A stretch of DNA of 64,000 nucleotides from a virus (Duplodnaviria; Caudoviricetes): positions 1-64,000 of the IMG/VR virus record IMGVR_UViG_3300016649_000097; one strand, written 5' to 3'. The notes under the pieces were generated by a model. That model did no database searches. It was not told the DNA's origin and worked only from the letters and a program-made list of their open reading frames with translations. The stretch's first letter is position 1. The number at the start of each line of letters is the position of its first letter. This document shows positions 4,819 to 47,094 of the stretch, in pieces. A program made the position numbers and the translations under genes.

Positions 4819-5099
4819 TAGATTACTCCTCCGCCCTCATATGAACTTGTATAGGTATCGCTACCGCCTGCTTCATCGCCACCATCAGCAACAGCAGTAT
4901 AAGCATCACTGCCACTTGTTTCATCTCCACCTTCGATTATGTCATAAGAAGGTGTAGTAGCAATTTCTGTCCAAAGTACTCCGTCAAAAACATAAAGGTT
5001 ATGATTATCAGGATTAAAGTACAAGTCCCCAGCAAATTGACCTACTGGCTCCGTATTCGAAGCCAGTACGTTGAGAGGGACTAGTGCTCTTTTGCTCAT
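4818..5099 (-). CDS. Small acidic virion-associated protein
   Basis: 93-aa ORF tightly packed between fibre genes; GDLYF, DGG repeats. Confidence 0.7.
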   Translation of the reverse strand: MSKRALVPLNVLASNTEPVGQFAGDLYFNPDNHNLYVFDGVLWTEIATTPSYDIIEGGDETSGSDAYTAVADGGDEAGGSDTYTSSYEGGGVI

Positions 5100-5100
5100 G

Positions 5101-28288: not shown

Positions 28289-28689
28289 GACATTGGACCC
28301 ATTGGAGAACGCTTTGGTAGAGCACCACCTACATTCTTTGCCCACTCTTCTCCTTCTGGTGTTCTGTGCTTAGAATGTTGGGGCGCCTTTATTCCAGTAT
28401 CGGTCGCTAACTTATGTGCCTTCTCCCATAGAGTAGTAGCGACACCAAGGCCTCGATAATCCTGATGTGTGCGAACCCAGTTGACCTCTCCTGTCTGTGG
28501 ATGCCATTGGAGAGTTCCTACTAGTTTTGGCTTTGCTTTACCTTCCTCCATGTGGGTGTCATTGGTAGCAATTGCTTGAATCTGGTGATAAGCAAAGAAG
28601 CCCTTCTTACTAGGCGCGGTATATTTAAATTGGACGTCAGATAAGTTACGTGGCTTATTGGGGTCAGATGGCTTTGGTGTCTTTTTCAT
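28285..28689 (-). CDS. GNAT acetyltransferase with NLSDVQF tag
   Basis: VRTHQDYRGLGVATTLW acetyl-CoA motif, SKHRTPEGEEWA. Confidence 0.8.
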   Translation of the reverse strand: MKKTPKPSDPNKPRNLSDVQFKYTAPSKKGFFAYHQIQAIATNDTHMEEGKAKPKLVGTLQWHPQTGEVNWVRTHQDYRGLGVATTLWEKAHKLATDTGIKAPQHSKHRTPEGEEWAKNVGGALPKRSPMGPMS

Positions 28690-29084
28690 CAGTGGTGGAA
28701 GTGCTCTCCGTCAAGAGTTGTGTGAGGCTCATCGGTATATTTGTTATGGTCATGATGATGTAGGGCGATTAATTCTTGATGAGTCATTTCTCTATCATCT
28801 CCGCCTTTAGGACGAACACCTGGGATATGGTCATCTTCATGACTGTTACGCCATTCGGCGTGTCTTCCCATCATGTGACCATTGTCGGATTTCAGGTGGT
28901 CCAATAGGTCTGCATGGTCATGGATGTCTACTGTTCTGGTTCTTTCGACTTCTGCGCCCATATGCTGTAAATCTCGCGCCTGCACGAAGGCCTTCATTCT
29001 CTCTACCTCTTCTGGAGAGAACTCAATATGAAAGTGATTAGTTCCTGCTGATTCGCATTTGGGGTCTTTGCAATTTTCTTCCAT
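28689..29084 (-). CDS. His-rich hypothetical protein
   Basis: HDHADLLDHL, HHHDH, HFHH. Confidence 0.7.
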   Translation of the reverse strand: MEENCKDPKCESAGTNHFHIEFSPEEVERMKAFVQARDLQHMGAEVERTRTVDIHDHADLLDHLKSDNGHMMGRHAEWRNSHEDDHIPGVRPKGGDDREMTHQELIALHHHDHNKYTDEPHTTLDGEHFHH

Positions 29085-29086
29085 GG

Positions 29087-29269
29087 TTATGCCTTTGTAC
29101 TAGAAGCAGTATTAGACGCCCCTGAAGGAGGCATCATCTGCATTGCGGTATTTACATATAACTTTTTGGGCATCTCTTTGCGGAAGTAGAATTGCTCCCC
29201 AGATAACGCCTTATGCATCAGTTCCTGATGGAACTTCTGTGTAGGGTTCTTTCGTACTACCGCAGCCAT
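29087..29269 (-). CDS. Hypothetical protein
   Basis: 60-aa ORF in operon. Confidence 0.55.
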   Translation of the reverse strand: MAAVVRKNPTQKFHQELMHKALSGEQFYFRKEMPKKLYVNTAMQMMPPSGASNTASSTKA

Positions 29270-29309
29270 AAGGACATTATGAGGCCGTTACTGAGAAAAT
29301 TTGGGCTGA

Positions 29310-29756
29310 TTAAGAAAACTGCTGAGGATTTAGGTTGTTGCTCTTCATTAGGCCCTCAAATCTTTCGCCCAACTCCTTGTCATGAGTCATAGTCTGTTGA
29401 CGATAATGGTCCAGTTCAGAACGAAGTTTTGGCATATGTCTAGAGAACGCCTTAGTAATGGGATGCTTTTCACCTAAGTTGTAATGTGCTACCTGATGAC
29501 CTGACGAAAGAGCGTCATAGACATGTCCCATGTGAGTTGAGGCTTCTGAGTAATTCCTCTCTTCATGTGCCTGATTAGCAAAGGTATGGTGCATGTTGGC
29601 TGCATCTAGATACTTTTTTAAATAGACTGAAGTAACTGCGGCATGAGTGCCTTGTGTAGGTTTGTTGTTTTCTAAAGAGTACTGAATACCACCGACCAAG
29701 GCTCCAAATCTCCAGTGAGCCTTGTCCTTATCCATAGGACCGCTAAGAGGATTCAT
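29310..29756 (-). CDS. His-rich helical protein ending in NLNPQQFS
   Basis: 148-aa ORF coupled to upstream stop. Confidence 0.7.
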   Translation of the reverse strand: MNPLSGPMDKDKAHWRFGALVGGIQYSLENNKPTQGTHAAVTSVYLKKYLDAANMHHTFANQAHEERNYSEASTHMGHVYDALSSGHQVAHYNLGEKHPITKAFSRHMPKLRSELDHYRQQTMTHDKELGERFEGLMKSNNLNPQQFS

Positions 29757-29933
29757 TTAATCCCCTTCGTAACCTCGATAAGAACCTTCATACTCATCAA
29801 ACTCACCCTTACGAGCATCTGGCTTGAATGGAGTTTTTAATGCCTCAGAAAGGTCTTCACCATAAGGCAAACGAGAAATTTCATCAGGATTGTGATAATC
29901 CTCGAATTGACGACCTAGGTTTCTTCTTGCCAT
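29757..29933 (-). CDS. 58-aa protein starting MARRNLGRQF
   Basis: My translation; not in ORF track; abuts next ATG. Confidence 0.7.
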   Translation of the reverse strand: MARRNLGRQFEDYHNPDEISRLPYGEDLSEALKTPFKPDARKGEFDEYEGSYRGYEGD

Positions 29934-29977
29934 TCCCCAAGGATATGGCTACTGCCTCAAAAATTTAGCGTGAAATC

Positions 29978-30115
29978 TTATTTCTTAGGGGAGGTACGAG
30001 GATATGGTTCGACTTTCGCCTTGATTGTTCCATCTTTTCTTAGGCGAACAATCCAACCATCTTTAATCTGGGTCTTATTAAAGCCTCTGTGGACTTTTAA
30101 CTTACCTGAACTCAT
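29978..30115 (-). CDS. 45-aa basic protein
   Basis: My translation MSSGKLKVHRGFNKTQIKDGWIVRLRKDGTIKAKVEPYPRTSPKK; overlaps upstream stop. Confidence 0.6.
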   Translation of the reverse strand: MSSGKLKVHRGFNKTQIKDGWIVRLRKDGTIKAKVEPYPRTSPKK

Positions 30116-30357
30116 TTTTGTCCCCTAACGAGATTGATACACGAATCAATTACTTTAAAGATGGTCTGCTCTACTTCATCAATGGGTGGAGGTGGAGGAT
30201 ACAGCCCCTCAAGTTCTTGGGCGATTAATACTCGCTCTTCTTGACGAGCCTTAGATAGGCGTTGGCAGTCAAAACAGGCTCCCTTGAAGGACTTACCCCT
30301 GTCGTCATTGGCGAATCTGCAAAACTTGTCGTGCTTCATAGCCGCGAAGACTAACAC
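30112..30357 (-). CDS. Hypothetical protein
   Basis: 81 aa; C-x-CFDC motif. Confidence 0.55.
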   Translation of the reverse strand: MLVFAAMKHDKFCRFANDDRGKSFKGACFDCQRLSKARQEERVLIAQELEGLYPPPPPIDEVEQTIFKVIDSCINLVRGQK

Positions 30358-30419
30358 ATTGGCGGCCTTCGGCTACTGCCTAGCCCCAAACCCTCCACCT
30401 ATGTCTTTCACCTGGCTGT

Positions 30420-31880
30420 TCTTCCGGCGATTCTCGCTTAATGGTGGGGGGGGTTATGTAATTTTTTATTTGATGACACTTACCACCTGACTACTAATCA
30501 GGTGGTAATTGTTCAACTCATGCTCAATTTATTTATTATTAAATAGTTTGGTGACAACTTTGGTGACAATAACTTTGGCTACTGTCTATTTAGCAACAAG
30601 GTTCGTGCGACCACTACCAAGTCATCAGACCACTTGGCTAGTTGTTATCAGGTAGTTAGCACCGGACTAGTTGTTATCACTTGCTACTCGCTTCGCGTTG
30701 CTATGTGAATCTATACAACTAACTAACTAACAATCTGTTATGTGTAGATAGTTACTATGACTAACTCAGTTATTCTTCTCAGTAATAGCCAAGTAACTCA
30801 CATAGCAATTCCTGGAATTAGCCACCTGAGATAAGTAGTTACTTATTCCGGTCTTCTCTTCAGGTGACGGGTAGTTAGTTAGTAACTTGGGATTCCGCCA
30901 GAGTAGTTACTTACTTGGATTCTCCTACCGGCTATTGCTATGCGTAGTTACTTATTCGACAGCGTGGCTATGTGATTATCTATCTATTACTAAAGTGTTT
31001 ATTTGTATTAGGTATTTCTATTATCTATTTATGTATCTATTACATTCTTTGTATTAGTCATTACTGAAAAGAAAAACTCTTTGGCGCGATTAGTTATGTG
31101 GGGGCGCACGCGTAAGGGCTAAGTAACTATTCGCAAGGGGGCGTGGTGCTTGGGGCGAGTTAGTTGAACTTTCAACCAAGTCACTTGGGGGCTAGGGGCT
31201 AGATATGCGTAAAACGCCTATAAACAGGCGTGTAGAACTCAGTTGGTCTTTATGGCATAATTGGCTCAGCGCACGCGCCAAGCGTGGGTCGGAAAAGAAG
31301 CACCAATCCGAGTGATTCCGATTCACTAGTAGGCAGAAGTGAAAAAGGCTAAACGCACTAGCACTAGCGGTGTATCTGTTAATAGAACTTCGGTTCGCGG
31401 TTGATAACCAAAACAGAGTGACGAAATAACTAGAAGCGTTTAATTAAATAGAGGCTAAGAAGAACGCGATTACTGTGTGAGTTCTACGAGTGAAATAAAA
31501 AAATACTTTGTTACTAGTAGTGATGATTCCTATTACTAACGGCTCGTATTAAAAACAAAGAGAGAACTTTGACTCACGCACATTCGGTGTAACTACCTAA
31601 CGATTATGAAAATAATTGTGAATAGCGTTTGGCTTAGAAGAGAGTTACGGAAAGTTGTGTAACTCAATTAGTCATTACTCATGGATTGCTAATAACAATT
31701 AGTGCCGACAGTAACCAATCTGTAATAAGAACAATGAAGGTAATGACTAAACGAGTTATTCATACTTAGTAATTCCGCTATGTGTTTAAGAACTTTATGT
31801 TCTTACTGTGATTGTCATTCATACCGATTCAGCGAATGAGATTGAATGACAATCGCGGTATCTACATAGGAAAGAGGAAA
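30420..31880. other. Long non-coding, repeat-rich divergent region
   Basis: No ORF of 60 aa or more; 11-bp inverted repeat 30480-30508; CTAGTTGTTATCA at 30638 and 30667; TAGTTACTTA three times plus one inverted copy. Confidence 0.8.
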
Positions 31881-31884
31881 CACA

Positions 31885-32058
31885 ATGGCAAACACATACA
31901 CAATCGGTGATTTATTCACCTCTACAAAGTCACAAGTGACAGGAATTATCGAAGAGATTATTCCGGTGCGTGATGACCTAGTGAAAGTTAGGTTGAATGT
32001 TGAAGGCGAAACTCGCTGGACTACATGGACACCTGATGTCGAGCCAATAACTGAATAA
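31885..32058 (+). CDS. 57-aa SH3-like small protein, first gene of plus-strand island
   Basis: My translation MANTYTIGDLFTSTKSQVTGIIEEIIP...VKVRLNVEGETRWTTW; GAGG RBS. Confidence 0.7.
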   Translation: MANTYTIGDLFTSTKSQVTGIIEEIIPVRDDLVKVRLNVEGETRWTTWTPDVEPITE

Positions 32059-32094
32059 CAACTAAATACCAATCAACTAATACAAGGAGAAATA

Positions 32095-32388
32095 ATGAAC
32101 CCTATGTTTGATTTCAGCGCAAAAGAAATCGGCATGATTCAGATGAGTATTAGCGCAATCGCGCAAACTACTCAGCACGCAATTAGTGAAGGCGCAACTC
32201 CACCTGACGGCTTCATGGAAACTATCGAATCGGTAGTACATAAACTCAACCTTGTTGTTGAGGCGCGTATCGAAAACGATAATCAGTTCGAGTCAATCGT
32301 TGAGGCGAAACTTCAAGATGTTGAAGAGGCACTAATGATTATTAGCCAAGACCCAACGATTGAAACAGAACAAATAATCTACGAATAA
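32095..32388 (+). CDS. Hypothetical helical protein
   Basis: AAGGAG RBS, 97 aa. Confidence 0.7.
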   Translation: MNPMFDFSAKEIGMIQMSISAIAQTTQHAISEGATPPDGFMETIESVVHKLNLVVEARIENDNQFESIVEAKLQDVEEALMIISQDPTIETEQIIYE

Positions 32389-32542
32389 CTTTCTGTCACT
32401 AACAGACACCGCTTGAAACGAGAACAGGTGCTAGCGAGATTCCACGACCTGCCTTCTCTGTTAGTGACAGATTCTTTTTAATACACAACTTAATAACAAC
32501 TTAATAATCCAAATACAAACAATCACCTAGAGAAAGAAAACA

Positions 32543-33907
32543 ATGACTACAACGCAATACGGCGTATTACTCGCCTCACAACCTGCTGATGTAACACTCA
32601 CACGACAAGTTGTTATCGCAAAGATAGATAACGAGATTGTCTGCTACTCACGCCTTACGAATGGCAAGCAAGGCAAACAGAACGCATGGGTAAAAGGCGC
32701 GTTCAAGTTTGATAGTGGCGAGCCACTAATCGGTGAGCCGGTTTCAATTCCGATAACACAGAATGATGTTGATGATTACAAAGAGAACGACATTCCAAGA
32801 GTTCTCATTCAGAAACTAATTCGTAAGCACTCTTTATCAGACCAATCACTAACTGATGAAGCGATTAGTGTCGCTGATTCAATATGGGAAGCGTTTGATA
32901 ATGACCCTGCTTCACTTGCTAAGTTCTTCGTTGATAATCGCGGTCAAAGAGTTACTAAGGGCTCTGTTGTATCGCACGATTCTGTTATTCAGATTCGTCA
33001 CGCAACTTCACAGGTCGCACAATCACTTGTTGATAGTGAAGAGCGTTCTCTGTATCTACCAAGTGTTACTGAGTTCTCTCATTACATTCAGCGAAAGTTT
33101 GCTGGTGATGTTGATGAATTAACTATGTATCAGTTCGCACTTGCTAACAAGATGAATGTTCTTCTTTACGGAGATGCCGGAACAGGTAAGACTTCATCTT
33201 CCATGTGGATTGCTTCATTACTTGGGCTTCCATACTTTGCGATTCCTTCTAACTCTGCTCTTGATTACACGCAGATTGTTGGCGGTTATGTTCCAAACGC
33301 TAACGGCTCGTTGTCATGGACAGACGGCGCGGTAACTCGCTTAGTTCGTAATGGTGGCGTTCTTCTTATCGGTGAAGTAAATACACTCGCTAAGAATGTT
33401 CAGCAGTTCCTAATGCCATTACTTGACTACCGCCGGTCAATTACAGTTATGGAGAATGGCAACGAAGTTATCAAGGCGCACGACAACTTGTTAATTATCG
33501 CTGACATGAATCCAAACTATCGTGGCACTCAATTACTCAACGAAGCATGGAAAGACCGCTTCGAGATTAAATTGAACTTCGGTTATGACCGCGCTATTGA
33601 GAAGAAGATTCTCAAATCAGAATCACTACTCGACCTTGCCTATGGCATGAGGTCGCGTTCTCGTGGTGCTGACAATCATTACTCCGGTGACAACAACACA
33701 ATCTTTGATACGCCGGTTTCAACTCGTATTCTCAAAACTTTCGAGAAGTTAGCAACGGAATTGTCATTCGATTTCGCTTGTGAAGTCTTTGCGAATAACT
33801 TTGATGAGAACGAGCGACCAGCAGTTAAGTTGTTGCTCGAATCAAATGCTTACAACCTTCAATCAGATTTAGGTTTGATTGAAACTACTTCTACAACTTC
33901 GGCTTAG
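32543..33907 (+). CDS. MoxR/CbbQ-type AAA+ ATPase
   Basis: GDAGTGKT, LLIGEVN, MNPNYRG, AWKDRF, STR. Confidence 0.9.
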   Translation: MTTTQYGVLLASQPADVTLTRQVVIAKIDNEIVCYSRLTNGKQGKQNAWVKGAFKFDSGEPLIGEPVSIPITQNDVDDYKENDIPRVLIQKLIRKHSLSDQSLTDEAISVADSIWEAFDNDPASLAKFFVDNRGQRVTKGSVVSHDSVIQIRHATSQVAQSLVDSEERSLYLPSVTEFSHYIQRKFAGDVDELTMYQFALANKMNVLLYGDAGTGKTSSSMWIASLLGLPYFAIPSNSALDYTQIVGGYVPNANGSLSWTDGAVTRLVRNGGVLLIGEVNTLAKNVQQFLMPLLDYRRSITVMENGNEVIKAHDNLLIIADMNPNYRGTQLLNEAWKDRFEIKLNFGYDRAIEKKILKSESLLDLAYGMRSRSRGADNHYSGDNNTIFDTPVSTRILKTFEKLATELSFDFACEVFANNFDENERPAVKLLLESNAYNLQSDLGLIETTSTTSA

Positions 33908-33917
33908 AAAGGTAATC

Positions 33918-35855
33918 ATGTCACTACCGGAACTAACAGAGTTCGCAAAGTTAGCGAATGACATTCTGTTGGAAGAAGAAGAGCGCAATCGCGCTCGTGT
34001 CGAGCGACTAACTCGATACTTCTCTCGCGTTAATTCCGCACTTACATTCCGCGAAATTAAAGTGAAGGTTGAATCTTCTACGATTGAAGCACCTGCTTGG
34101 TCGGGTGCTTCTGACATAACTCTCAACTCACGACTCATTAACGACTTTAATAATGGCGTTAATGTTGCGAATCTTCGTGGGCTTAACTTCCACGAGTTGT
34201 CGCACATTCTCTATACACCTAGACATGGTTCAGAGATTGTTACTTGGGTTAATGAGAACAAGTATCGCTTGGCGTTTAATGCGTTGGAAGACCAACGAAT
34301 CGAAACACTATTCACCGCACGATTCCCTTCCACTACGGATTGGTTCGTTGTAACTGTTCTGACTTACTTTGTTAATGACGAAAAACAATTCCAAACTTCT
34401 TATCCGTTGCTTCGTGGTCGTAAGTATCTGCCACTAGAAGTTCGTGAGAAGTCGCGTGAGTTGTTTCCATTCCAAGATAAGTTAGATGAAATCTGTGAAA
34501 TCGTTGATGAATACAGAACGCTGGTGTATCCACTCGACACAGAGCGTGGCAAAGTTCTTATTGAACGATTCCACAATCTAATTGGCTCGTTGCCTCAGCA
34601 TGGTGACGGCGGTAATGGTGACGGCGGTAATGGTGAATCCAAAGACGGAGAATCTTCTACTGTTGATTACAACGACCTAACTGATGAACAGAAACAACAG
34701 GTAAGGAACGCTAGACCTGCTGACGGCAGTAATGGCGCACCGACTACGACAATCCTTAACTGTCCATTCGGTCATGGTGACAGACCAACGGAAGGTATCG
34801 AGCCTTCGATACATTCACGACCACAGACACCGAAGAATCAGAAGCGTGATAGCGAACGCGCAAAGCAATTAGATAAAGCGATTCAAGATGAAGCGCAAAC
34901 TTCACAATCGCAATCTAAAGATTCGCAATCGCAATCACCTTCTCAACAAGGTGGTAACTCTGCCGGTAACACAGGTTCTCTTACTGAGATTCTGAAAACC
35001 GCGATAAGTGATGTTATGGATAAGGAAAGTGTCGCTAATGAAATCACCGAGATTATTCGCGTGATGAAAGGGCTACCTTCTCTTTCTAGTAACAATCTCA
35101 CAGAGCCCGACCTTGCTTCATACGCAAAAGCAATTCCTGATTCCAAGACACTTTCTACTTCCGTTTCATTCGCTCGTGAATTGGAACGATTGAAAGCAAA
35201 GTTCGACCCTGCTTGGGATAAGTATGAATCGCGTGGCAAACTAAACGCACAACGATTCGTTCGTGGTGATGATTTAGATACTGTCTTTGATACTTGGAAT
35301 GAAGGTCGAGAAGACGCTACTGAAATTGAGTGCGTAATCATTCTCGACAAGTCCGGTTCTATGGGCGGTAACAAAGCAACTCAGGCTTATCGCGCTATGT
35401 ATGCGATTAAGTATGCGCTCGACAAAATCGGTGCTAACTGTTCTGTTATCACTTTCAATCACGAAGCAGAAGTTCTTTATCGCGCAAGTGACAAAGCAAC
35501 TTCATTCATTCGTGATAGTGGTGCTGACGGCGGAACTAACGCCGAATACGCGGTGCGCTACGCAACTAAGTTGCTTGCTGAATCAGATAAGCCGGTCAAG
35601 TTGTTCTTCGCAATAACTGACGGCGAATGGTCTGATAGTGAGGCGTGTGACGGAGAGATTAAGAAACTATCTCGTGCCGGTGTTCTCACCGCGTTCGCTT
35701 ACATTCCTGAACACAACGAAGAGGTTGTATTGACTCACGAGAAAGCGCATTACGCAGATGTCGCTTCTGTGATTCGCAATCCATTCGATTTAGTTGGTAT
35801 GGCTCGCACAATCGTTCGTAACGCGATTACTCGCAGAGTTACTTCCAACGCTTAG
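33918..35855 (+). CDS. VWA-domain protein with N-terminal HExxH
   Basis: HELSH, NALEDQRIE; MIDAS DKSGSM, GGT, ITDGE; start ATG 33918. Confidence 0.88.
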   Translation: MSLPELTEFAKLANDILLEEEERNRARVERLTRYFSRVNSALTFREIKVKVESSTIEAPAWSGASDITLNSRLINDFNNGVNVANLRGLNFHELSHILYTPRHGSEIVTWVNENKYRLAFNALEDQRIETLFTARFPSTTDWFVVTVLTYFVNDEKQFQTSYPLLRGRKYLPLEVREKSRELFPFQDKLDEICEIVDEYRTLVYPLDTERGKVLIERFHNLIGSLPQHGDGGNGDGGNGESKDGESSTVDYNDLTDEQKQQVRNARPADGSNGAPTTTILNCPFGHGDRPTEGIEPSIHSRPQTPKNQKRDSERAKQLDKAIQDEAQTSQSQSKDSQSQSPSQQGGNSAGNTGSLTEILKTAISDVMDKESVANEITEIIRVMKGLPSLSSNNLTEPDLASYAKAIPDSKTLSTSVSFARELERLKAKFDPAWDKYESRGKLNAQRFVRGDDLDTVFDTWNEGREDATEIECVIILDKSGSMGGNKATQAYRAMYAIKYALDKIGANCSVITFNHEAEVLYRASDKATSFIRDSGADGGTNAEYAVRYATKLLAESDKPVKLFFAITDGEWSDSEACDGEIKKLSRAGVLTAFAYIPEHNEEVVLTHEKAHYADVASVIRNPFDLVGMARTIVRNAITRRVTSNA

Positions 35856-35955
35856 GTGTCACTCTCTAGGTGACAAGGTGTGGGGCGTATTCATTACGCC
35901 TCACACTTCCAATTACAAACAATCCAATTACAAACTAATCAGGAGAAATAAAAAG

Positions 35956-36570
35956 ATGAAGTTCAACGAACTACAAGTCGGTGTCGAATACGCGGTCATT
36001 CCTTCATGGCAGTATTCATCACGAGAAAAGAAAGACCCTAATCAAGTTAGAAGAAATGATGTTGAGAAAACAACTCTCGTTAATCTAACTAAATACGAAT
36101 ACAAGGTGTATCGCGCTGATAGAGCAGACCACCCTGAGTTCGTTCAAGCACCGCAAGGCTCGCGTTCTGTCGGTTATCTAGTGACCGCTAGTGACGGAAT
36201 GAACTCTCCGGTCTATTGGCTCGCACGACCACAAGACATTGTGGAACGCTGGTCAGTTCTCGAACCAATATGGCAAGAGAAGGAACGCCTAGAACAAGCA
36301 CGACAGGCAGAAGAGAAGAGAAAGCGTGAAGCAGAAGAAGCGCAACGCCAACTTATCTTGGAGAACCGCGCTCGCTTAGAGAAATCAACTCTTGAATCTC
36401 TACAAGCGATTCTCGGTGGTCGTGCTAATCCGCAAAATCTTTCATTCGATACTCGTAGTTCTCGTGACTCGAATGGCAATTACAAAGAAATAAATACTGT
36501 CCGATTCGATTTGGAATTGGCGCAAATACTTATTGAGAAGTGCCTAGAAGCAAAGGAGATAGTGGGCTAA
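35956..36570 (+). CDS. Hypothetical protein
   Basis: Start MKFNEL after AGGAG; coiled-coil middle. Confidence 0.75.
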   Translation: MKFNELQVGVEYAVIPSWQYSSREKKDPNQVRRNDVEKTTLVNLTKYEYKVYRADRADHPEFVQAPQGSRSVGYLVTASDGMNSPVYWLARPQDIVERWSVLEPIWQEKERLEQARQAEEKRKREAEEAQRQLILENRARLEKSTLESLQAILGGRANPQNLSFDTRSSRDSNGNYKEINTVRFDLELAQILIEKCLEAKEIVG

Positions 36571-37205
36571 TGACAACTGACACAAACGCACCGGAGATTG
36601 GGGCAACTCAATCTCCGGCTAATACAAAAGTTCGTAATGAGTCTTTCTATTTAGAGAGATTCAAAAGTTGCGTTGCTCGTTCTTACGCCGTTAATGGTCG
36701 AATCGTTGATACAGATTACTTCTGTGAAATCTACAAAGGATTCGCCATAGTTACATGGAAGCAAGAGTGGAATAATGTAAATAATGGAACGCGAATCAAG
36801 TTCAGTAACTATGTGTGGGAAGTCGGTGGTGTATTCGACCACCTAGAAAATCTTGGGTGGATTGCTCAGGGTTGTGTCGTTACCGGATACAACGCTGATA
36901 CCCAAGAGAAGGCATTGAAGAAGGCAAGGAAACGAGTTGATTTACTTGCCGAGATATATTCACACAAGAGCGAACTAATGGGTCTTTCTCAAATGTGGTT
37001 ACCGCGTGGTGTTACAACTGTAACTCCGGTCTATAACGCTTTGATTGGTGATGTTGTTGCCATTCGTGCCTTTGGTAGAGCGCGACTTGGAAAGATTGTG
37101 AAGTTAGTTGGTAGTCGCTTTGTTGTTGCTTACATGACTCCAAGTAACACGCACGACATTCATTACAAAACACTTCCCCTATCTCAAATCTATCCAAAGG
37201 ATTAG
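36570..37205 (+). CDS. Hypothetical protein with C-terminal SH3/KOW-like region
   Basis: TAATG coupling; IGDVVAIRAFGRARLGKIVKL. Confidence 0.7.
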   Translation: MTTDTNAPEIGATQSPANTKVRNESFYLERFKSCVARSYAVNGRIVDTDYFCEIYKGFAIVTWKQEWNNVNNGTRIKFSNYVWEVGGVFDHLENLGWIAQGCVVTGYNADTQEKALKKARKRVDLLAEIYSHKSELMGLSQMWLPRGVTTVTPVYNALIGDVVAIRAFGRARLGKIVKLVGSRFVVAYMTPSNTHDIHYKTLPLSQIYPKD

Positions 37206-37207
37206 AC

Positions 37208-37387
37208 ATGGCTACCAAACTAACTCGTAGAGGTTGGATTGTTCTAGTAATCATTCCGGCTATCTTCATTACAATCTTTGTTTCATGGGCTACTCGTGAT
37301 GTTTGCTATGTAGGTGACAAGCCTTATGCGAACGCTCTTGGTTATGGCTCATGTCAGAAATTACTTGAAGAGTTGGTGAATAAATGA
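37208..37387 (+). CDS. 59-aa membrane protein
   Basis: My translation MATKLTRRGWIVLVIIPAIFITIFVSW...C...C. Confidence 0.65.
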   Translation: MATKLTRRGWIVLVIIPAIFITIFVSWATRDVCYVGDKPYANALGYGSCQKLLEELVNK

Positions 37388-37479
37388 TTATTACAATCTT
37401 TGTATTAACAATCTTAGCGACTCTTATCGGGGTCGCTATTGGAACTTCGTTCGACATGATTGAAGGAGAACACGAATGA
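37384..37479 (+). CDS. 31-aa TM peptide
   Basis: My translation MIITIFVLTILATLIGVAIGTSFDMIEGEHE; ATGA overlaps at both ends. Confidence 0.55.
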   Translation: MIITIFVLTILATLIGVAIGTSFDMIEGEHE

Positions 37480-38030
37480 CTAAAACAAAAGTTTGTAGTC
37501 ATTGTAAAACTCGCAAGCCATTGACTTCATTCAATCGCAAGCGTTCTACTCGTGGCGAATTAGGTAACACACAACCCTATTGCCGACCATGCCAAAGCGA
37601 GCGACAGAAGACTTACTATCGAAAAGATACTAAGGCGCAATTACAAAGAATGTATAAGAATCGTAAGAGGCGTAAGAAAGAGATTCATTCTTATCTTGCG
37701 ACTTACTTCGCAAAGAACAGTTGCGTTGATTGTTCTAAAAAGAAACTTCGCGTTAAGAAATTACTTAAAGGCAAAGTTCCTACTTCGACAATCAACCAAG
37801 TAATTGCGACTATGGATTCTGACATTCGCAACCTAACCTTCGACCACCTTCACACAAGGGGCGAGAAGGAATACACAATCGCTGACATGATTCGTGACAT
37901 TCAACCATTACACAAGATTAAAAAAGAAATACAAAAGTGCGTAGTGCGTTGCCATAACTGTCACGACACAATAACTGTGAAGCGTGCTAAGAATTGGAGA
38001 TACCACGCCCACAAACAATTAACTAAATAA
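37476..38030 (+). CDS. HNH endonuclease
   Basis: CSHC...CRPC N-terminus; CVDC...FDHLH...CVVRCHNCH. Confidence 0.8.
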   Translation: MTKTKVCSHCKTRKPLTSFNRKRSTRGELGNTQPYCRPCQSERQKTYYRKDTKAQLQRMYKNRKRRKKEIHSYLATYFAKNSCVDCSKKKLRVKKLLKGKVPTSTINQVIATMDSDIRNLTFDHLHTRGEKEYTIADMIRDIQPLHKIKKEIQKCVVRCHNCHDTITVKRAKNWRYHAHKQLTK

Positions 38031-38037
38031 CAAACTT

Positions 38038-38185
38038 ATCTAGTGAAGGTCAAGGTTTATGACCTTTGTAGGTTTCTTCATTATTCCTACAAACTAATTC
38101 AAGACCAAGAGCAACCATGACCTTACAAGGGGCTTCAAGAACTCCTTTCGACCTTGTAAGTGAGTTGTATCTGCCTTCACTAGAT
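38038..38185 (+). ncRNA. Candidate multi-stem structured RNA
   Basis: 12-bp closing stem 38038-38049/38174-38185 enclosing 8-bp (38065-72/38086-93) and 9-bp (38122-30/38152-60) stems. Confidence 0.5.
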
Positions 38186-38209
38186 TCCAAAACAAAGAGA
38201 GGGAAATAA

Positions 38210-38887
38210 ATGCCAAATTATTGCTATAACAATCTTTACATTACTGTTGAAGACAATAAACAGTTAGACAAAATCATTCAAGGGATTACTAACAATTCAG
38301 AACAACTCTTTGACTTTAATCGAATCATTCCGATACCGGAAGAACTTGCTAATACCAGCGCACCGAACAGAACTAATCCAATTACATTAAGAGATAAATA
38401 TGGATTCTCTGATTGGTATGAATGGCGTTGCGCTAATTGGGGAACTAAGTGGAACGCTTCTGAAGTTGAATTGAATCTTGAAACACCTGAGCAGATTTAC
38501 ATTAAGTTCCAAACGGCATGGTCACCGCCTATTCCGGTAATTAAAAAGATTGCTGAGATGTTTCCATTCGCTTATCTAACTTTGGATTGGGAAGAGGAAA
38601 GCGGTTACTACGGCAGAACAGAGTTCGCTAAAGGCGTTATGACTTTCGACATGGAAGGTGAAATGGATTGCGCTTACCGGATTGAGAATTGGGGAGATTG
38701 TCACCCTGATTGTGAAAACTGTGGTGAGTGTGATTGTGAGATTTGTAATTGCCCGAATCGTTCTATACAAACAATTTGTAGTTCCTGTAATTCAGGAGAA
38801 CACGCAATATCAGAAGAAAGGAAAGAAAATGAGGAAAGTCAGACCGCTACGGAATCTGCCTTCATCACAACCGAAGAGAGCAACTAA
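38210..38887 (+). CDS. DUF1281/YubB-like ferredoxin-fold protein with Cys-rich tail
   Basis: MPNYCYN, FDFNRIIP, WYEWRCANWGTKWNA, FQTAWSPP. Confidence 0.8.
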   Translation: MPNYCYNNLYITVEDNKQLDKIIQGITNNSEQLFDFNRIIPIPEELANTSAPNRTNPITLRDKYGFSDWYEWRCANWGTKWNASEVELNLETPEQIYIKFQTAWSPPIPVIKKIAEMFPFAYLTLDWEEESGYYGRTEFAKGVMTFDMEGEMDCAYRIENWGDCHPDCENCGECDCEICNCPNRSIQTICSSCNSGEHAISEERKENEESQTATESAFITTEESN

Positions 38888-39167
38888 TAATCCTGTCTTC
38901 AATCTCAAAGTGCCGACACCGCGTGACATGGATAGAACTCCATGCCAAGAGAACGACCCTGAGATTTGGTTTCCAAGTGGCGAAACTTTGCCCGAAGATA
39001 CCGAGAAGATAAGAACGGCTAAGTCACTCTGTTCTATCTGCCATGAATCAAGTAAGTGTCTTTCATTCGCGGTAACGAACCGGATTCGTTATGGGATTTG
39101 GGGTGGCACTACGGAAGCAGAAAGATACAAACTTATTCGTAAAGCAGAACGGAATAAAAACAAATGA
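38829..39167 (+). CDS. whiB: WhiB-family transcription factor
   Basis: C...DPEIWFP...AKSLCSIC...CL..A...GIWGG. Confidence 0.9.
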   Translation: MRKVRPLRNLPSSQPKRATNNPVFNLKVPTPRDMDRTPCQENDPEIWFPSGETLPEDTEKIRTAKSLCSICHESSKCLSFAVTNRIRYGIWGGTTEAERYKLIRKAERNKNK

Positions 39168-39394
39168 AAACGAAAAACAAAAGTTGTGATGTTTGCTTTT
39201 CGTATGGTGTCCAAACAGTTGCCATTACAAGTGACAACTCCGGCACTAATACAAATGTTTGCTTTGTCTGCTTAGATGAATGGGAAAAACAAAATCCCAA
39301 TAATCGCTTATGCGAAATCTGTAATAAGAAACCGCCACGCACTTCTGAAAGTAAATACTGTCAGGAATGTCGTGATTGGTTTAAGAGAAGTTAG
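39164..39394 (+). CDS. Small Cys-rich protein
   Basis: Four CxxC pairs. Confidence 0.65.
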   Translation: MKTKNKSCDVCFSYGVQTVAITSDNSGTNTNVCFVCLDEWEKQNPNNRLCEICNKKPPRTSESKYCQECRDWFKRS

Positions 39395-39401
39395 GAGAAT
39401 C

Positions 39402-39845
39402 GTGGTTAATACATTCTTGCCCTATCCCGACTTTGTTAAGTCGGCTCAATCGCTGGATTACAAAAGACTTGGTAAGCAACGAGTAGAAGCGTGGCAAATA
39501 CTTCGTGCGCTTCGTGGCGAAACTAAAGGTTGGCGTAATCACCCTGCCACTAACTTGTGGCGTGGTCACGAGAAGTTACTTTGTGAATACGGAATTGCTA
39601 TCTGTGATGAATGGATTGCTCGTGGTTACAAAGACACTATGCGCGAAAGATTTATCGCGTTACATTCTTTGCTTCCTGATTGTGAAGTGCCTAGTTGGTT
39701 TGGAAGTGGCTTCTTCCACACTTCGCACATGAGTAATCTAAAACGCAAAGACCCGACTTACTATCAGTTTAATGTTGCTGACAATCTTCCTTATGTTTGG
39801 TTTAACAACGAAACAAAGGAACTTTATGTAAAGGAAACAAAGTGA
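39402..39845 (+). CDS. Pyrimidine-dimer DNA glycosylase-like (MSMEG_6728/T4 endoV family)
   Basis: TFLPYPDF...LDYKRLGKQRVEAWQIL...GWRNHPA..WRG; GTG start after GGAG. Confidence 0.85.
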   Translation: MVNTFLPYPDFVKSAQSLDYKRLGKQRVEAWQILRALRGETKGWRNHPATNLWRGHEKLLCEYGIAICDEWIARGYKDTMRERFIALHSLLPDCEVPSWFGSGFFHTSHMSNLKRKDPTYYQFNVADNLPYVWFNNETKELYVKETK

Positions 39846-40060
39846 GTGAATCAGAATGGCTAACGAACGACCAAGTAAGCGAGTTGTTAGGATTGAAGTA
39901 TTCAACTCTTTACACTTATCGAAAAAGAAACACCCTTCCCGAACCGGATACATATATCGGAAGAACTCCGGTGTGGAAAAGAAAAACAATAGAAGATTGG
40001 AAACTCAATCGAAAAGAAATTGAATTGGTTGATGAAACTGATTCAGTAACTAACACATAG
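39842..40060 (+). CDS. AlpA/Xis-like HTH protein (possible excisionase)
   Basis: WLTNDQVSELLGLKYSTLYTYR...LPEPD..IGRTPVW. Confidence 0.8.
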   Translation: MSESEWLTNDQVSELLGLKYSTLYTYRKRNTLPEPDTYIGRTPVWKRKTIEDWKLNRKEIELVDETDSVTNT

Positions 40061-40102
40061 CGGAATTGCGAACTCTCTTCTAAGTCACTTAGTCACTATG
40101 TG

Positions 40103-40136
40103 AGCCCTCATTCTCAATCGGGAATGGGGGCTTTTT
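40103..40136 (+). terminator. Intrinsic terminator
   Basis: agccctcattctc-aatc-gggaatgggggct then T run. Confidence 0.7.
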
Positions 40137-40150
40137 CATGCCCTCTAAGT

Positions 40151-40251
40151 TACTCATCAGTAGAGGGGGCTTCGATTTGCGCTACAAGTTACCGACCCCT
40201 ACCCTTCGGTAACTTACTCGTGAGTAACCTACTCATGAGTAGAGGGGGCTT
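40151..40251. promoter_or_regulatory. Operator/att-like repeats upstream of recombinase
   Basis: TACTCAT(C/G)AGTAGAGGGGGCTT at 40151 and 40230; palindromes TACTCATGAGTA and near-palindrome TACTCGTGAGTA. Confidence 0.6.
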
Positions 40252-40253
40252 TA

Positions 40254-41531
40254 GTGGCTTATGTGGTCAAGCGTGGCGCACGCTTTACAGGCTATTACCG
40301 GAAGGGTTCTAAACGGCTTTCTGCTGGCACATGGGGCTCTTATAGTGAGGCTCAGTATCACGCGCTACGGCTAGAGAATGGGGGCTCTGAGAGCCCTTCT
40401 AGGGCTAATTTGACCCTCTCTGAGTATGCCGATAAATGGCTTCTAGGGGCAGAATTAGCACCTATCACGAAGAAGGGGTATGAATCCCTTTGGAAGAGGT
40501 ATCTCGACCCTCAAATCGGCTATAAACGCGTTTCTGAGGTATCCACGCTCGAAGTCCGGCAACTCTTGGTCGAACTAAAGGCACAAAAGGTAGGAAACGC
40601 CACAATCGCCCAAATCAGGGCAATCTTGGGCTCTCTGTATAAATGGCTCATAGAGGCTCAAATCACCCAAACCAACCCAACTCAGGGCGTTCGGGTCAAA
40701 GTGGGCAAATCGGACATTACTCATGTGGTCGAGCCGGAAGACTTTAAGAAGATAGTTGGTCATCTCCCGTCAGAAGGTGCGAAGTTACTTGCCAAGTTCC
40801 TAGTCGCTTCAGGGGCTCGCTTTGGTGAAGCGATTGAGATTCGATTAAAAGATTTTGATTTCAATACAAAAGAAGTATTTATTCAGAGGCGAGCAAGTGA
40901 GTTAGGCAAGAAGCGTAACAACGGAGAAAGATTCCTGGTTGTAGAAGGCACTAAGTCCGGTTACAAGCGCGTAGTGGTGCTACCGGAAGCCCTAATACAA
41001 GAGATTCAGGCATTTGTCAGGGCTAATCGAATAGGAAAAGAAGAGTTAGTCTTTGAGAAAAGCAAAGTCATACCAAAAGATAAACTAAAGAGTTCTCGTG
41101 GCACACAAAAGTCTTCACGACCATTCGTGAAAGACGGAAAACTGTTCCAACATGGCACGCTCAGGGCTTACGCAAGTGGGTCTTGTAGGTGTGACGATTG
41201 CAGAGCGATAGTTCGAGAGTATCGAAGGTCGCAAAGAGCAAAGTCATACCAAAAGGGTGAGGTCATACTTGATGAACCGAGTCACCTGCCACGAGATACA
41301 TGGAGAACCATTTGGAACAAAGCAATAGCCAAGTCAGGAATGGGTTGGTATCCAAGAACTCACGACTTACGGCATGCGAACGCAACGCAGTTACTCAAAA
41401 ACGGCGTTGATGTCCATGAAGTAAAGGAGAGATTGGGTCATCAATCCATAAAAACTACCGAACGCTATTTACACCGCGTTCGACACCAGAAGTCAAAGGC
41501 AAGTGAAGTAGTCAATGACTTTCTGGGCTAG
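40254..41531 (+). CDS. int: Tyrosine recombinase/integrase with Zn-ribbon insertion
   Basis: SGARFGEA (R), HDLRH, LGH, TERY; inserted HGT...CRCDDC. Confidence 0.9.
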   Translation: MAYVVKRGARFTGYYRKGSKRLSAGTWGSYSEAQYHALRLENGGSESPSRANLTLSEYADKWLLGAELAPITKKGYESLWKRYLDPQIGYKRVSEVSTLEVRQLLVELKAQKVGNATIAQIRAILGSLYKWLIEAQITQTNPTQGVRVKVGKSDITHVVEPEDFKKIVGHLPSEGAKLLAKFLVASGARFGEAIEIRLKDFDFNTKEVFIQRRASELGKKRNNGERFLVVEGTKSGYKRVVVLPEALIQEIQAFVRANRIGKEELVFEKSKVIPKDKLKSSRGTQKSSRPFVKDGKLFQHGTLRAYASGSCRCDDCRAIVREYRRSQRAKSYQKGEVILDEPSHLPRDTWRTIWNKAIAKSGMGWYPRTHDLRHANATQLLKNGVDVHEVKERLGHQSIKTTERYLHRVRHQKSKASEVVNDFLG

Positions 41532-42157
41532 GAGAACTGATGAAACTAGAAACACAGAACCGACTAGTGGTGCTTGTCCTATCCACCGCCTTCATTTCGG
41601 GGGCATTTGGAATAGGTCGAGTAACTCCGGCATTTAGCCCAACTAAAGCCGAAGCACTAGCGATTGAGCAGGAGTCCAGCGACAAGTTGCTTACCAAGTT
41701 CGAGAACGCTCACAAGTTGAGCGACCAAGAACTAATAGCCTTACTGAAAGCAGTAGGGTTCGAAGGCAAAGCACTACGAGAAGCATGGGCAATCGCCAAG
41801 AAAGAATCAACAGGAAGACCGCTCGCCCATAACCCAAACGCCTCAACAGGCGACAACTCATACGGCTTGTTTCAGATAAACATGCTAGGAACTTTGGGAG
41901 AAGAGCGTCGTGAAAAGTTTGGATTGGAATTCAATGCCGAACTGCTAAATCCTGTGGTCAATGCTCAAGTTGCTTATCACATGAGCAACGGAGGCAAAGA
42001 TTGGAGTGCATGGAAGGGGATTACTCAGCGAACCAAAGAATGGATAGCGAAGTTCCCGGAGAGCAAGCCAAAGCCAAAGCAATAGCAAAAGGCAAAGGCA
42101 ACAAGTGAATAGCGAAAGCAATAGGTAAAGGCTTAGAAAGCAAAGTCATACCAAAAG
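41061..42157 (+). repeat. Three exact copies of AGCAAAGTCATACCAAAAG
   Basis: At 41061-41079, 41237-41255 and 42139-42157. Confidence 0.9.
41540..42085 (+). CDS. Exported lytic transglycosylase/lysozyme-like protein
   Basis: Signal peptide; AIAKKESTG, DNSYGLFQINM, LLNPVVNAQVA, WSAW. Confidence 0.85.
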   Translation: MKLETQNRLVVLVLSTAFISGAFGIGRVTPAFSPTKAEALAIEQESSDKLLTKFENAHKLSDQELIALLKAVGFEGKALREAWAIAKKESTGRPLAHNPNASTGDNSYGLFQINMLGTLGEERREKFGLEFNAELLNPVVNAQVAYHMSNGGKDWSAWKGITQRTKEWIAKFPESKPKPKQ

Positions 42158-42171
42158 CAATAGCAAAAGAG

Positions 42172-42203
42172 AAAGCCCCCTAATTTGAGTTAGGGGGTTT
42201 TTT
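42172..42203 (+). terminator. Intrinsic terminator closing the plus-strand island
   Basis: aaagccccctaa-tttgag-ttagggggtttttt. Confidence 0.8.
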
Positions 42204-42230
42204 CTACTATCGTTTATTTAGGAGGGTCAT

Positions 42231-42473
42231 ATGACACACGAAGAATTGTTAGAAAAGATACGAGTATTTTTAGTTGCCACAGAACTTCAATCTATGGATG
42301 AGAACTTTGAAGGCACTAAAATGCTAAAAGCCCTTCATTCGGTAGTGGAGTTACATAAGCCTTGTGATTGTGATGAGGCGCATTGCGATTACTGTACTGA
42401 CCTTGGCAATTTGTTTTCTAATCAGTCTTACCCTTGTCCAACTATTAAGGCTATTGAGAAGGAATTGATGTAA
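42231..42473 (+). CDS. Hypothetical protein
   Basis: GGAGG RBS; ELHKP...C..C...YPCPT. Confidence 0.7.
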   Translation: MTHEELLEKIRVFLVATELQSMDENFEGTKMLKALHSVVELHKPCDCDEAHCDYCTDLGNLFSNQSYPCPTIKAIEKELM

Positions 42474-42894
42474 CGCAAGTACAAGTTACACAGTGCTGAC
42501 GATTCCAAGCACGCTGAGTATTTAGAGAGGGGGTAACGGCTTCAAGATGTTCAGGATTAACACAAAGTTTTTTATTACAGAGATGGTCAATGACATGACC
42601 TTCGGGAATCTCTCCCTTAACAAGCAGATAAACAACTCTATGAGCGACAGTTGCTTTGCCCTTCCACTTAATGCTTCCATAGCCAGATTTATGAATAGAA
42701 CCTGTCCAGATATGGCAACCAGACTCATCAACAGAATGTCTAATAAGTGGATTCATAGCAATAGGGCCAGGTGGTCTGCCATTGGTAACGCAGGAGACGC
42801 ACCTAGCCCTACGACCATCAGATTTAACTCTAGGGTCTTTGTAAAACTCTTCAATAGGCTTATCTTGCTTACACTGACGGCACAATCTATTCAT
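42451..42894 (-). CDS. HNH homing-type endonuclease
   Basis: GCHIWTG...GYG...AHRVVY...IDHLCNKKLCVNPEHL. Confidence 0.88.
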   Translation of the reverse strand: MNRLCRQCKQDKPIEEFYKDPRVKSDGRRARCVSCVTNGRPPGPIAMNPLIRHSVDESGCHIWTGSIHKSGYGSIKWKGKATVAHRVVYLLVKGEIPEGHVIDHLCNKKLCVNPEHLEAVTPSLNTQRAWNRQHCVTCTCVTSIPSQ

Positions 42895-42915
42895 ACCGTC
42901 AGTGTATCGCAAGTA

Positions 42916-44958
42916 TCAGTTGTGCGAGGCTGAAGTGTTCTCCTTAATGAACTTCACTTCGCATGCGTCTGTAACGCAATAACTTTCTCCAGCAGCGTCT
43001 GCTGCCATTCCAGCATAGACTCCACTGAAGTCAATAGGAAAGAGATTCATTGTGGCTTCTAAGTAATCTTCTTCATCTACCTGCGTGTACGGCATCTGTG
43101 GATAGACGTGGTTACCACTTGGCAAAAAGGATACGGTCTTTAACTGACCGTCATACATATGCAAAGCCGTACCAATAGCCGAAGCCTCAGTCTCAGGGTC
43201 AAAACTGATAGTCACACTTACAGAGTTATCTGACCAGTATCTCTGTGCAGTAGCAGCAAGAGCCATCTTCTCGTAAATACTTACATCCTTCTCAGAACGT
43301 ATAGCGTTTGCCTTTACAGGAAAGAAGACAACAGAAGTCGTATCAGGAGATTCATTTGCGGGCTCAACTTTATATTGCGCCATTCTAAATAACGGAAGCA
43401 TTGGGTCATTGTTTGCGAAACGAATTGCACGCAAGAAGTATTGACCACCTACAGACCAGTGAACTCCGGGAGATTCTCCTGCAAGAATGGAGACTGTTCC
43501 ACTTGGCTTTACAGTTGTAGTCTTGATTGACTCACGGATACCTAACCATTCAGAGTATGTCTTGTCATATCCCTGGATGACTTGATAGCCAGCGTCCATC
43601 CACTCACGCAATACAGGCAAACCCTTTGTATCTGCAAAGTTTGCAACGCCAGATATAGAAGTTCCAATGCGCCTATTTCTTTGCATTATGGCGTTGGTCT
43701 CTTCCCAGTGAGTAGGTAGAAGTGTTACAGTCTTTGCATAGAGGTATGCAAACTTTAGAGTGCGCTTGAAGTCTTCTAAATCTTCGTGGCGATTTAAGTA
43801 AGTCTCAACCAGCGTGCAGCACTCGAATGACTCAAGACTCTGTTCAGCACAGGGGTTGTAGCCAGCCACACGCCAATCCTTGTTATTGATTGGGTCAGCA
43901 AGACGACCATACTTGCGAGACACATCCATCCAGATGACTCCGGGCTCACCATTACGAGCGATGCCATCAATGATTGGGGTTAAGTCTTGACCTACCGATA
44001 CCTCAACCGAGTTGTTGGACATCCAGCCATGAGCCATACGCTCAGGGTGCTTTTCATAGTTCTTAAGATTGAGGAACTCTTCATCATCAAGTCGACCCAT
44101 AAGTAACTCAGCAGAGCGACGCACATTGCCAGAGACAACACAGACACCAATCATGTTGCCAATGTCAGCGATATCTCTGCGAGTTAACTTCTGACCAGCA
44201 CGACCCTCAAACAACTCAACAATAAGTGAGTGGAGTTTTACTAACGGCTCTGGACCTGCTGCGGTTCCACCAAAGGTCTTAATTGGCTCTCCTGCTACAC
44301 GAATCTTTGCGTAGTCAAATACTGGAAGTTTGGAATCTGGTCGTAGGTATGCATTGATAAGGGTCGCTACTGACTCAACCCAACCCTCTCTTGTATCTGG
44401 AATCTCATAAAAGTCTCCCTGCTGTGGGGCATAGATTGTGAAGTCTTTGTCTGCGCCCTTGTCATCAAAGCCGACACCAACGCCCAGCATTGATGCTTCC
44501 ATTAAGAAAGCGAACGGCTTTGCTGGGTCTGTCTTTGTCATTGAACCAGTTGATACGAATGCACAGTTCTGTAGGGCTGCCGAGTTCCTTTGTACATTTA
44601 CAAGAGGCGTACCCATTACCCATAGCCCACGTCCGGGTGGTGTCCACTTCAAATTGAAGAGTCGGTCAAAGGCCTCCTTTGCTGAGGCTGCTGCCTTGGC
44701 GTCAGACCATGGCAAGCGTTGACTCTTGGCGTGGTCCTTCTGTAATGAGTACATGCCATTGATTACGCGTTCGCATACATCAACCCATGTCTCTTTACGA
44801 CCATCTTCCTTTATACGTGAATAGGTACGGAGAAAAGTAATCTCTCCTACCGAGTTCCCTCCAGCATCTCTGTATCCAAACGGAGCCTTCTTGTCTTTGT
44901 ACTGAGCGAGAAAGTCTTCAGCCAACTTAAAAGAAAAGTAATTCATTTCCCCTACCAT
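42916..44958 (-). CDS. nrdJ: Class II (adenosylcobalamin-dependent) monomeric ribonucleotide reductase
   Basis: TPPGRGLW, NCAF, GNVRRSAE, NPCAEQSL, CCTL, TTVKPSGTVS, C-terminal CVTDAC. Confidence 0.93.
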   Translation of the reverse strand: MVGEMNYFSFKLAEDFLAQYKDKKAPFGYRDAGGNSVGEITFLRTYSRIKEDGRKETWVDVCERVINGMYSLQKDHAKSQRLPWSDAKAAASAKEAFDRLFNLKWTPPGRGLWVMGTPLVNVQRNSAALQNCAFVSTGSMTKTDPAKPFAFLMEASMLGVGVGFDDKGADKDFTIYAPQQGDFYEIPDTREGWVESVATLINAYLRPDSKLPVFDYAKIRVAGEPIKTFGGTAAGPEPLVKLHSLIVELFEGRAGQKLTRRDIADIGNMIGVCVVSGNVRRSAELLMGRLDDEEFLNLKNYEKHPERMAHGWMSNNSVEVSVGQDLTPIIDGIARNGEPGVIWMDVSRKYGRLADPINNKDWRVAGYNPCAEQSLESFECCTLVETYLNRHEDLEDFKRTLKFAYLYAKTVTLLPTHWEETNAIMQRNRRIGTSISGVANFADTKGLPVLREWMDAGYQVIQGYDKTYSEWLGIRESIKTTTVKPSGTVSILAGESPGVHWSVGGQYFLRAIRFANNDPMLPLFRMAQYKVEPANESPDTTSVVFFPVKANAIRSEKDVSIYEKMALAATAQRYWSDNSVSVTISFDPETEASAIGTALHMYDGQLKTVSFLPSGNHVYPQMPYTQVDEEDYLEATMNLFPIDFSGVYAGMAADAAGESYCVTDACEVKFIKENTSASHN

Positions 44959-46608: not shown

Positions 46609-47093
46609 CAGTCATCCCAAAGGTCTGCGTCTTTTGGCTGTGCTGCAAGTTTAGATTTAGCAATGTTAACGTTTGTAATGGCTGCTTCTATATCAGACCA
46701 TTTGCGTACCTTGCTTGGCGCATCGGGACGGTTCTCTATCGGCAAGTAACTTGGGTTACTGACCAGTAACGTAGCAATTCCTTGTTCCATAACCCATGCA
46801 CACATAGACGGGTCTGAGTCAACATATAGTTCTACAGGCGCTTTTTTACGACTCAATGTGAACTGCCGTTTCTTTAACTCTTCACCAGCCAATTCAACAG
46901 AGTTATCGAGCAGGTCATCATAGCCAATGATGCCAAGAGAGTTAAGCCAGTGCTTTGCATCTGCTGACTCGCTCTTTGTAATAAGAGCAACACGGTGAAA
47001 GTTGTTTAATGCGTAATAGACCAGTACTCCCGTTCGGTTTGGTTCTCCAGATTCCGCCCTAAGTACCCCGTCTAATGAAAGGATTATATTCAA
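46608..47093 (-). CDS. HAD-superfamily protein lacking first Asp
   Basis: IILSLDGVLR, LYVDSDP. Confidence 0.6.
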   Translation of the reverse strand: MNIILSLDGVLRAESGEPNRTGVLVYYALNNFHRVALITKSESADAKHWLNSLGIIGYDDLLDNSVELAGEELKKRQFTLSRKKAPVELYVDSDPSMCAWVMEQGIATLLVSNPSYLPIENRPDAPSKVRKWSDIEAAITNVNIAKSKLAAQPKDADLWDD

Positions 47094-47094
47094 A

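Follow-up and report, generated by a model that had tools for sequence, protein, structure and literature searches.

An operon-sized desert of Type II-like restriction sites in a family of freshwater actinobacterial phages

The DNA analyzed here is a 64,000-nt window of the tailed-phage record IMGVR_UViG_3300016649_000097 (Caudoviricetes); the whole record, window plus further contig DNA, measures 86.6 kb. Between 30412 and 42295 (11.9 kb) the window holds a plus-strand operon in which only six copies of 20 short, mostly restriction-site-like motifs are left (at 30811, 32236, 33173, 40934, 41199, and 42007), whereas both flanks carry about 35-45 such sites per kb. The edges of this desert are sharp, at 30411 on the left and about 42296 on the right. 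The left edge is a divergent junction just past the last minus-strand gene, and the distal end of both operon and desert is marked by a bidirectional intrinsic terminator with a 17-bp stem (42168-42205). All the genes from junction to terminator are on the plus strand. Since the edges coincide with the junction and the terminator, the desert is one transcription unit. The original prediction, made by eye, had placed an island at about 30.45-41.19 kb; the location was right and the true limits are slightly wider. The island had also been described as the only long plus-strand block, which is roughly right: it is the longest, with 782-3597 the next.

The operon opens with a leader of about 1.5 kb without a long open reading frame (ORF) (30358-31884, plus strand), which starts at the divergent junction. 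In related contigs whose neighboring genes cannot be aligned as DNA, this leader keeps 70-85% nucleotide identity, and the conserved stretch extends to about 32300, over the first two, small acidic genes. Repeated boxes were found in the leader: GTAGTTACTTATTC occurs three times and GGCTACTGYCTA twice, at 30371 and 30577, the latter box also sitting at the junction in 12 relatives. No RNA family was matched in an Rfam scan of 29.5-43.5 kb. In some relatives the opposite strand carries a tRNA-Gly(GCC) gene 65-140 bp outside the start of the desert (L189:3346-3421, L202:1606-1681). The stretch matching it here is not called as a tRNA and overlaps a doubtful 81-aa ORF (30112-30357).

The first conserved gene (31885-32058) encodes a protein of 57 aa with an isoelectric point (pI) of 4.4, for which no family or fold match was obtained. 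The second (32095-32388) encodes a 97-aa protein of pI 4.1, with 18 Asp and Glu residues against 4 Lys and Arg; family and fold searches and an atlas look-up returned nothing for it, and it may be regarded as a candidate early anti-defense protein. These are followed by a MoxR/CobS-like AAA+ ATPase (AAA_5; 32543-33907) and its partner, a CobT-like protein with a von Willebrand A (VWA) domain (33879-35855). Next come two conserved proteins with confident structure models (pLDDT 92 and 84). The 204-aa protein (35956-36570), present in 55 relatives, is built from a small beta-barrel at the N-terminus, a helix of 58 residues, and a beta-hairpin domain at the C-terminus, while the 221-aa protein (36540-37205) shows a weak match to Tudor/SH3-like barrels. 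Fold searches with the two models gave only weak Tudor/PWWP/SH3-like barrels (Foldseek E ≥0.005; VIA Z ≤6), and no function could be assigned.

Further along the operon is an HNH/endonuclease VII-like protein (37476-38030), followed by an acidic 225-aa protein of pI 4.3 (38210-38887) carrying a DUF1281_C (Api92/YubB-like) ferredoxin-like domain. The atlas places this protein in viral DUF1281_C (YubB-like) clusters, which we take as a lead only; DUF1281 is not mentioned in the polyvalent-protein paper. The ORF of a WhiB-type regulator follows (38658-39167), its true start probably lying downstream of 38887, given that the domain occupies residues 92-159. A DenV-like pyrimidine-dimer DNA glycosylase (39276-39845), an excisionase-like helix-turn-helix DNA-binding protein (39842-40060), and a tyrosine integrase (40254-41531) come next, and from the integrase gene onward the desert is slightly leaky. 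The last gene (41540-42085) encodes a lytic-transglycosylase-like (SLT_3) protein with a hydrophobic N-terminus. Just before the terminator are three 39-bp tandem repeats (42065-42175, plus strand). The 21-mer AAAGCAAAGTCATACCAAAAG is found at 41059, 41235 (one mismatch), and 42137, two of these copies being inside the integrase gene; together, tandem repeats and 21-mers may be arm sites of the integrase (attP). Far from the desert, at 3583-7806, are two collagen-repeat proteins; the one with an Mtd-like N-terminal domain is probably a tail fiber.

Counting bore out most of what had been seen by eye. Between 30450 and 41150, TGCA, GGCC, and ACGT are each absent, while the whole window has 320, 67, and 131 copies, respectively. 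GTAC occurs once (at 32236) against 192 in the window, as had been stated, and CCWGG twice (30811 and 40934) against 81; the copy at 40934 had been overlooked in the original prediction. The gaps free of TGCA (30318-41199), GGCC (30364-42765), and ACGT (28648-43106) are about 10 times longer than any other gap for these words in the window. CCGG, by contrast, is over-represented as predicted, with 32 copies in the island against 37 in the remaining 53 kb.

The desert is real and wider in motifs than first noted. We scored known Type II and Type IIS targets in it, with expected counts taken from flank density. Eleven of these were not found at all: GTNNAC (48 expected), GCNGC (42), ACTGG (31), CCATC (31), GGNNCC (23), CCNNGG (21), GTCTC (20), CTRYAG (19), GGNCC (18), CAGTG (16), and RGCGCY (11). 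Two more, GCATC and GGATG, were found once each, with 32 and 21 expected. Neither orientation of the asymmetric motifs remains, and the non-coding leader has been purged no less than the genes, which indicates that selection acts on double-stranded DNA.

Neither base composition nor codon usage accounts for the loss. A second-order Markov model predicts 27 TGCA, 17 GGCC, 27 ACGT, and 32 GTAC inside the island, that is, 17-32 copies per word where 0-1 is observed. Codon bias had been allowed for in the original prediction as a possible cause. We shuffled synonymous codons of the island genes 500 times, keeping the proteins and the island's own codon usage. The means were 24±4 TGCA, 11 GGCC, 26±4 ACGT, and 22 GTAC, while the coding sequences contain 2 TGCA and no ACGT. 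For nearly all motifs none of the 500 shuffles was as low as the observed count, so the depletion exceeds codon bias. An unbiased count of all words of 4-5 bases, with or without an internal gap and with a within-island expectation of at least 8, gave 19 non-redundant motifs with zero copies in the island. Each of seven control windows of equal size gave 2-3, the missing words there being AGCT and GATC with at most one chance match. Similarly, 11 5-mers are unexpectedly missing from the island and none from any non-overlapping 12-kb window.

Several other features of word usage set the region apart. NCG and CGR codons are up two- to fourfold in the island, and the excess of the CpG words CGCG and TCGA can be ascribed to this displacement of codon choice by motif avoidance. 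The excess of CCGG is twofold in the island coding sequences (26 against 13.2±2.8 in the synonymous-shuffle null), and close relatives exist without CCGG anywhere; GANTC is mildly enriched in the desert. ATAT and TATA are depleted in the desert, and sigma-70-like promoter matches in 29800-43200 number 4 against 24±4.7 in shuffles.

Two words follow a different pattern. GATC and AGCT are each absent from the entire record, with about 230-240 copies expected in the flanks under the Markov model and about 277 under a zero-order model, and the island shares this genome-wide loss. Beyond these two, no further word, 5- and 6-mers included, is strongly depleted in the flanks. Genome-wide avoidance of restriction sites in phages has been described (Rusinov et al. 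2018, PMC6286503). The present case resembles it in the disappearance of GATC and AGCT from the whole record and in the short, Type II-like nature of the avoided words. It differs in that the avoidance is mostly confined to one operon, where a whole-genome statistic would dilute or miss it.

Whether relatives carry the island had been left as a check, and many do. The phage has hundreds of relatives in IMG/VR, more than 40 of which carry a desert of 10.5-14.1 kb, with equally sharp edges, over the same operon; wherever it is covered, the operon is syntenic and its genes are orthologous. Each lineage has its own set of erased words. GCNGC, GGNCC, CCWGG, and GGATG are purged nearly everywhere in the family and GGCC mostly, while ACGT, TGCA, GTAC, CATG, GANTC, GTNNAC, ACTGG, and GTCTC are purged in some lineages only. 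For example, L169 keeps TGCA and GTAC, L151 and L162 purge GANTC, and L146 purges CATG. As for GATC, AGCT, CCGG, and CGCG, which of them is missing from the whole genome depends on the lineage, and in other lineages they are abundant. No avoidance at all was seen in two contigs with a different operon content (L130 and L131). In the island orthologues of L169, all 34 of 34 TGCA/GTAC sites are absent from the phage studied here, with the amino acids unchanged at 19 of the 34. Syntenic deserts with differing vocabularies, together with this loss of sites in orthologous genes, rule out a one-off import of the segment.

All the sequencing runs that hold this DNA are freshwater, estuary, or aquaculture metagenomes. 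Compared with the cultured phages BRock and Alone3, the portal protein is 56% and the large terminase 54% identical, and this similarity to Streptomyces phages, along with the WhiB-type regulator, identifies an actinobacterial phage. A megablast search against GenBank phages gave no near-identical phage DNA. A search with the portal protein in prokaryote genomes matched only phage contigs binned into unrelated metagenome-assembled genomes; thus no prophage was identified and no host call could be made.

Many different host Type II restriction enzymes have selected their 4-6 bp targets out of this segment only. The principle that restriction can select at a sub-genomic scale is already known. 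T5-like phages withstand Type I and Type II systems except when the first-transferred DNA itself carries sites (PMC10644984), and murciaviruses are restricted only via motifs in their leading region, the authors arguing that restriction selects at a sub-genomic scale in phages with fixed ends (PMC12455610). Leading regions are not discussed in a paper on plasmid restriction (PMC10359461).

Synteny with Alone3 and BRock suggests a terminal position for the desert. The present phage and Streptomyces phage Alone3 have collinear replication arms, the island occupies the place of a reverse-oriented, CpG-rich block of about 10 kb at the right end of the Alone3 genome, and the 30.4-kb junction falls where Alone3 has its physical ends, with their terminal repeat of 197 bp. 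In BRock the terminal repeat measures 221 bp and the coverage margins are sharp (PMC7453282). On this alignment the desert would be a terminal segment, reading inward from the genome end. The two cultured phages differ from the present one in being lytic, tRNA-rich, about 52% GC, and unpurged, and the terminal block shares almost no genes with the operon. In Alone3 the block (105.7-115.9 kb, L087) is three- to fivefold richer in CGCG and GCGC than is the remainder of that genome, with no word purged, and an ArdA-like gene lies just upstream of it.

The closest parallel is the first-step-transfer DNA of T5 and BF23, to which the original prediction had compared the island. In both cases the early takeover genes sit in a segment that makes up about 8-13% of the genome and is about 10 kb long in T5 and 11.9 kb long here. 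In T5-like phages restriction acts only via that segment, the rest being site-rich yet safe in vivo (PMC10644984), and in the desert, too, the targets are absent from the segment and common elsewhere. The terminal repeat that contains the T5 segment is 10.2 kb long and includes an injection stop signal and the A1 and A2 genes, whereas the nearest cultured relatives of the present phage have repeats of 197-221 bp; a T5-type 10-kb repeat is not indicated. At the distal border of the desert a terminator and tandem repeats are all that is seen. Moreover, T5's own first-transferred DNA has no missing 4- or 5-mers by the same test, and the operon here also holds lysogeny genes. A second parallel is provided by the class I DNA of T7 and the leading region of Murciavirus, where genes run inward from the entering end to a terminator, as they would here if the junction is that end, and where only motifs in the leading region matter (PMC12455610). 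Those podoviruses have Type I systems to face, and one motif or a few are involved, while here about 20 Type II-like words have been erased in a family of tailed actinophages of 90-100 kb. T7-like phages make small acidic anti-restriction proteins first; no Ocr homologue was identified here.

We consider that the operon is a leading, early-exposed segment comparable to T5 first-step-transfer or T7 class I DNA, with a probability of roughly 55%. The idea of anti-restriction selection on a first-exposed segment, put forward in the original prediction, is in part supported: the purge is family-wide and lineage-specific, it fits one operon, and synteny points to a terminal position. Several observations weigh against such a reading. 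Pfam and PHROG scans detected no recognizable anti-restriction gene (ArdA, Ocr, or KlcA) in the operon, nor any homologue of a pre-early gene, and tblastn of the island proteins against T5 1-50000 (the A1, A2, and dmp region) gave no match for any of them. The cultured relatives on which the synteny is based are distant, as the portal identity indicates, and show no purge. Contigs of the source sample cross the 30.4-kb junction, and the long contigs of relatives do not begin there. The record itself is linear, about 89% complete, and without an end repeat. Starts of relatives' contigs do cluster from -140 to +350 around the desert start, not at one base, and their ends also cluster just past RNR; strain variability explains the clusters at the two desert borders equally well as a terminus would, and we counted neither as evidence for one.

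If the operon does lead, the genome would have fixed ends, and the operon, read inward, would lie at the end that is first into the cell. Naked in the cytoplasm at that point, it would have to be transcribed before phage functions secure the rest of the genome. That remainder would either enter later, in stages, on the model of first-step transfer in T5 or of transcription-coupled entry in T7, or be shielded in some other way by then. Because the flanks tolerate 458 TGCA sites, their protection must be nearly complete; GATC and AGCT could be the targets of enzymes that the later protection does not stop. Within the operon, the small acidic proteins encoded first and the acidic DUF1281_C protein are candidates for the protecting factor, as is the MoxR-VWA pair. 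More tentatively, and with somewhat less than even odds, we propose that this abundant, uncultured family of freshwater actinobacterial phages uses staged delivery, in which a naked 12-kb leading operon encodes broad protection of the following 75-90 kb against at least 20 Type II specificities.

It could also be that the whole genome enters at once, the flanks being shielded by regional base modification or by co-injected DNA-coating proteins and the operon alone left bare so that it can be read by the host RNA polymerase. In that case the desert would show which part is unshielded, not in what order the DNA enters. This would fit a desert that matches a transcription unit exactly, and also flanks that tolerate hundreds of sites for the same enzymes, for which the protection has to be broad as well as nearly complete. 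We nevertheless regard such shielding as unlikely. To our knowledge no region-limited DNA modification has been described, modification at the level of the nucleotide pool could not spare one segment, and six-frame Pfam scans of the record gave no signal for TGT/DpdA-family proteins or for C5, N4/N6, or D12 methylases. Downstream of the desert, a three-gene group at 45106-48024 (candidate NTase, HAD, and DpdA-like proteins) is shared with Alone3 at 28-36% identity and kept throughout the family. The group gives no Pfam TGT signal and no PDB sequence match, and the 500-aa 'DpdA-like' protein matches nothing in Pfam or among PDB sequences.

A driver other than restriction is considerably less probable still. 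One might invoke RNA-cutting toxins that attack the early transcript, selection against spurious promoters, or site-specific nucleases of the phage itself, since the desert equals one transcript unit and sigma-70-like matches, ATAT, and TATA are scarce in it. However, palindromes and known Type II/IIS targets make up most of the purged words, and selection at the RNA level would not remove asymmetric words in both orientations; a loss limited to the sense strand was not seen. A phage nuclease would force avoidance throughout the genome, as perhaps for GATC and AGCT, and not in one operon.

Finally, the other possibility raised in the original prediction, a foreign integrative int/xis element or recently acquired module with the word usage of a past host, can be rejected: the operon does contain genes for an integrase and an excisionase-like protein, it does depart from the flanks in GC content, CpG content, and codon usage, and contig breaks do cluster at both borders, but the operon is syntenic and not patchy in its more than 40 desert-bearing relatives, lineages with the same genes differ in the words purged, sites were removed synonymously and in situ, the genome-wide GATC/AGCT loss extends into the island, no direct repeat of 11 bp or more (att-like) is shared by the two borders, and a codon shift is the expected product of motif avoidance itself.

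The novelty lies in the scale of the purge (about 20 motif classes), in its exact match to a single operon, lysogeny genes included, in vocabularies that differ from lineage to lineage of a large uncultured family, and in the group of hosts. Streamlined freshwater Actinobacteria are often described as defense-poor, and the purge implies that the Type II restriction pressure on their phages is both heavy and varied. Statistics of avoidance computed over whole genomes miss strong selection of this kind, limited to part of a genome. The operon also offers a defined, conserved set of genes in which to seek broad post-entry protection, namely the MoxR-VWA pair, the two conserved proteins of 204 and 221 aa, the small acidic proteins, and the DUF1281_C protein; T5 has such broad protection too. 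If the operon is indeed the leading segment, the entry polarity and the early region of a phage would be readable from metagenome sequence, and the lists of words erased in each lineage would reveal, by sequence alone, what restriction repertoire each host population has and which end of the genome enters first.

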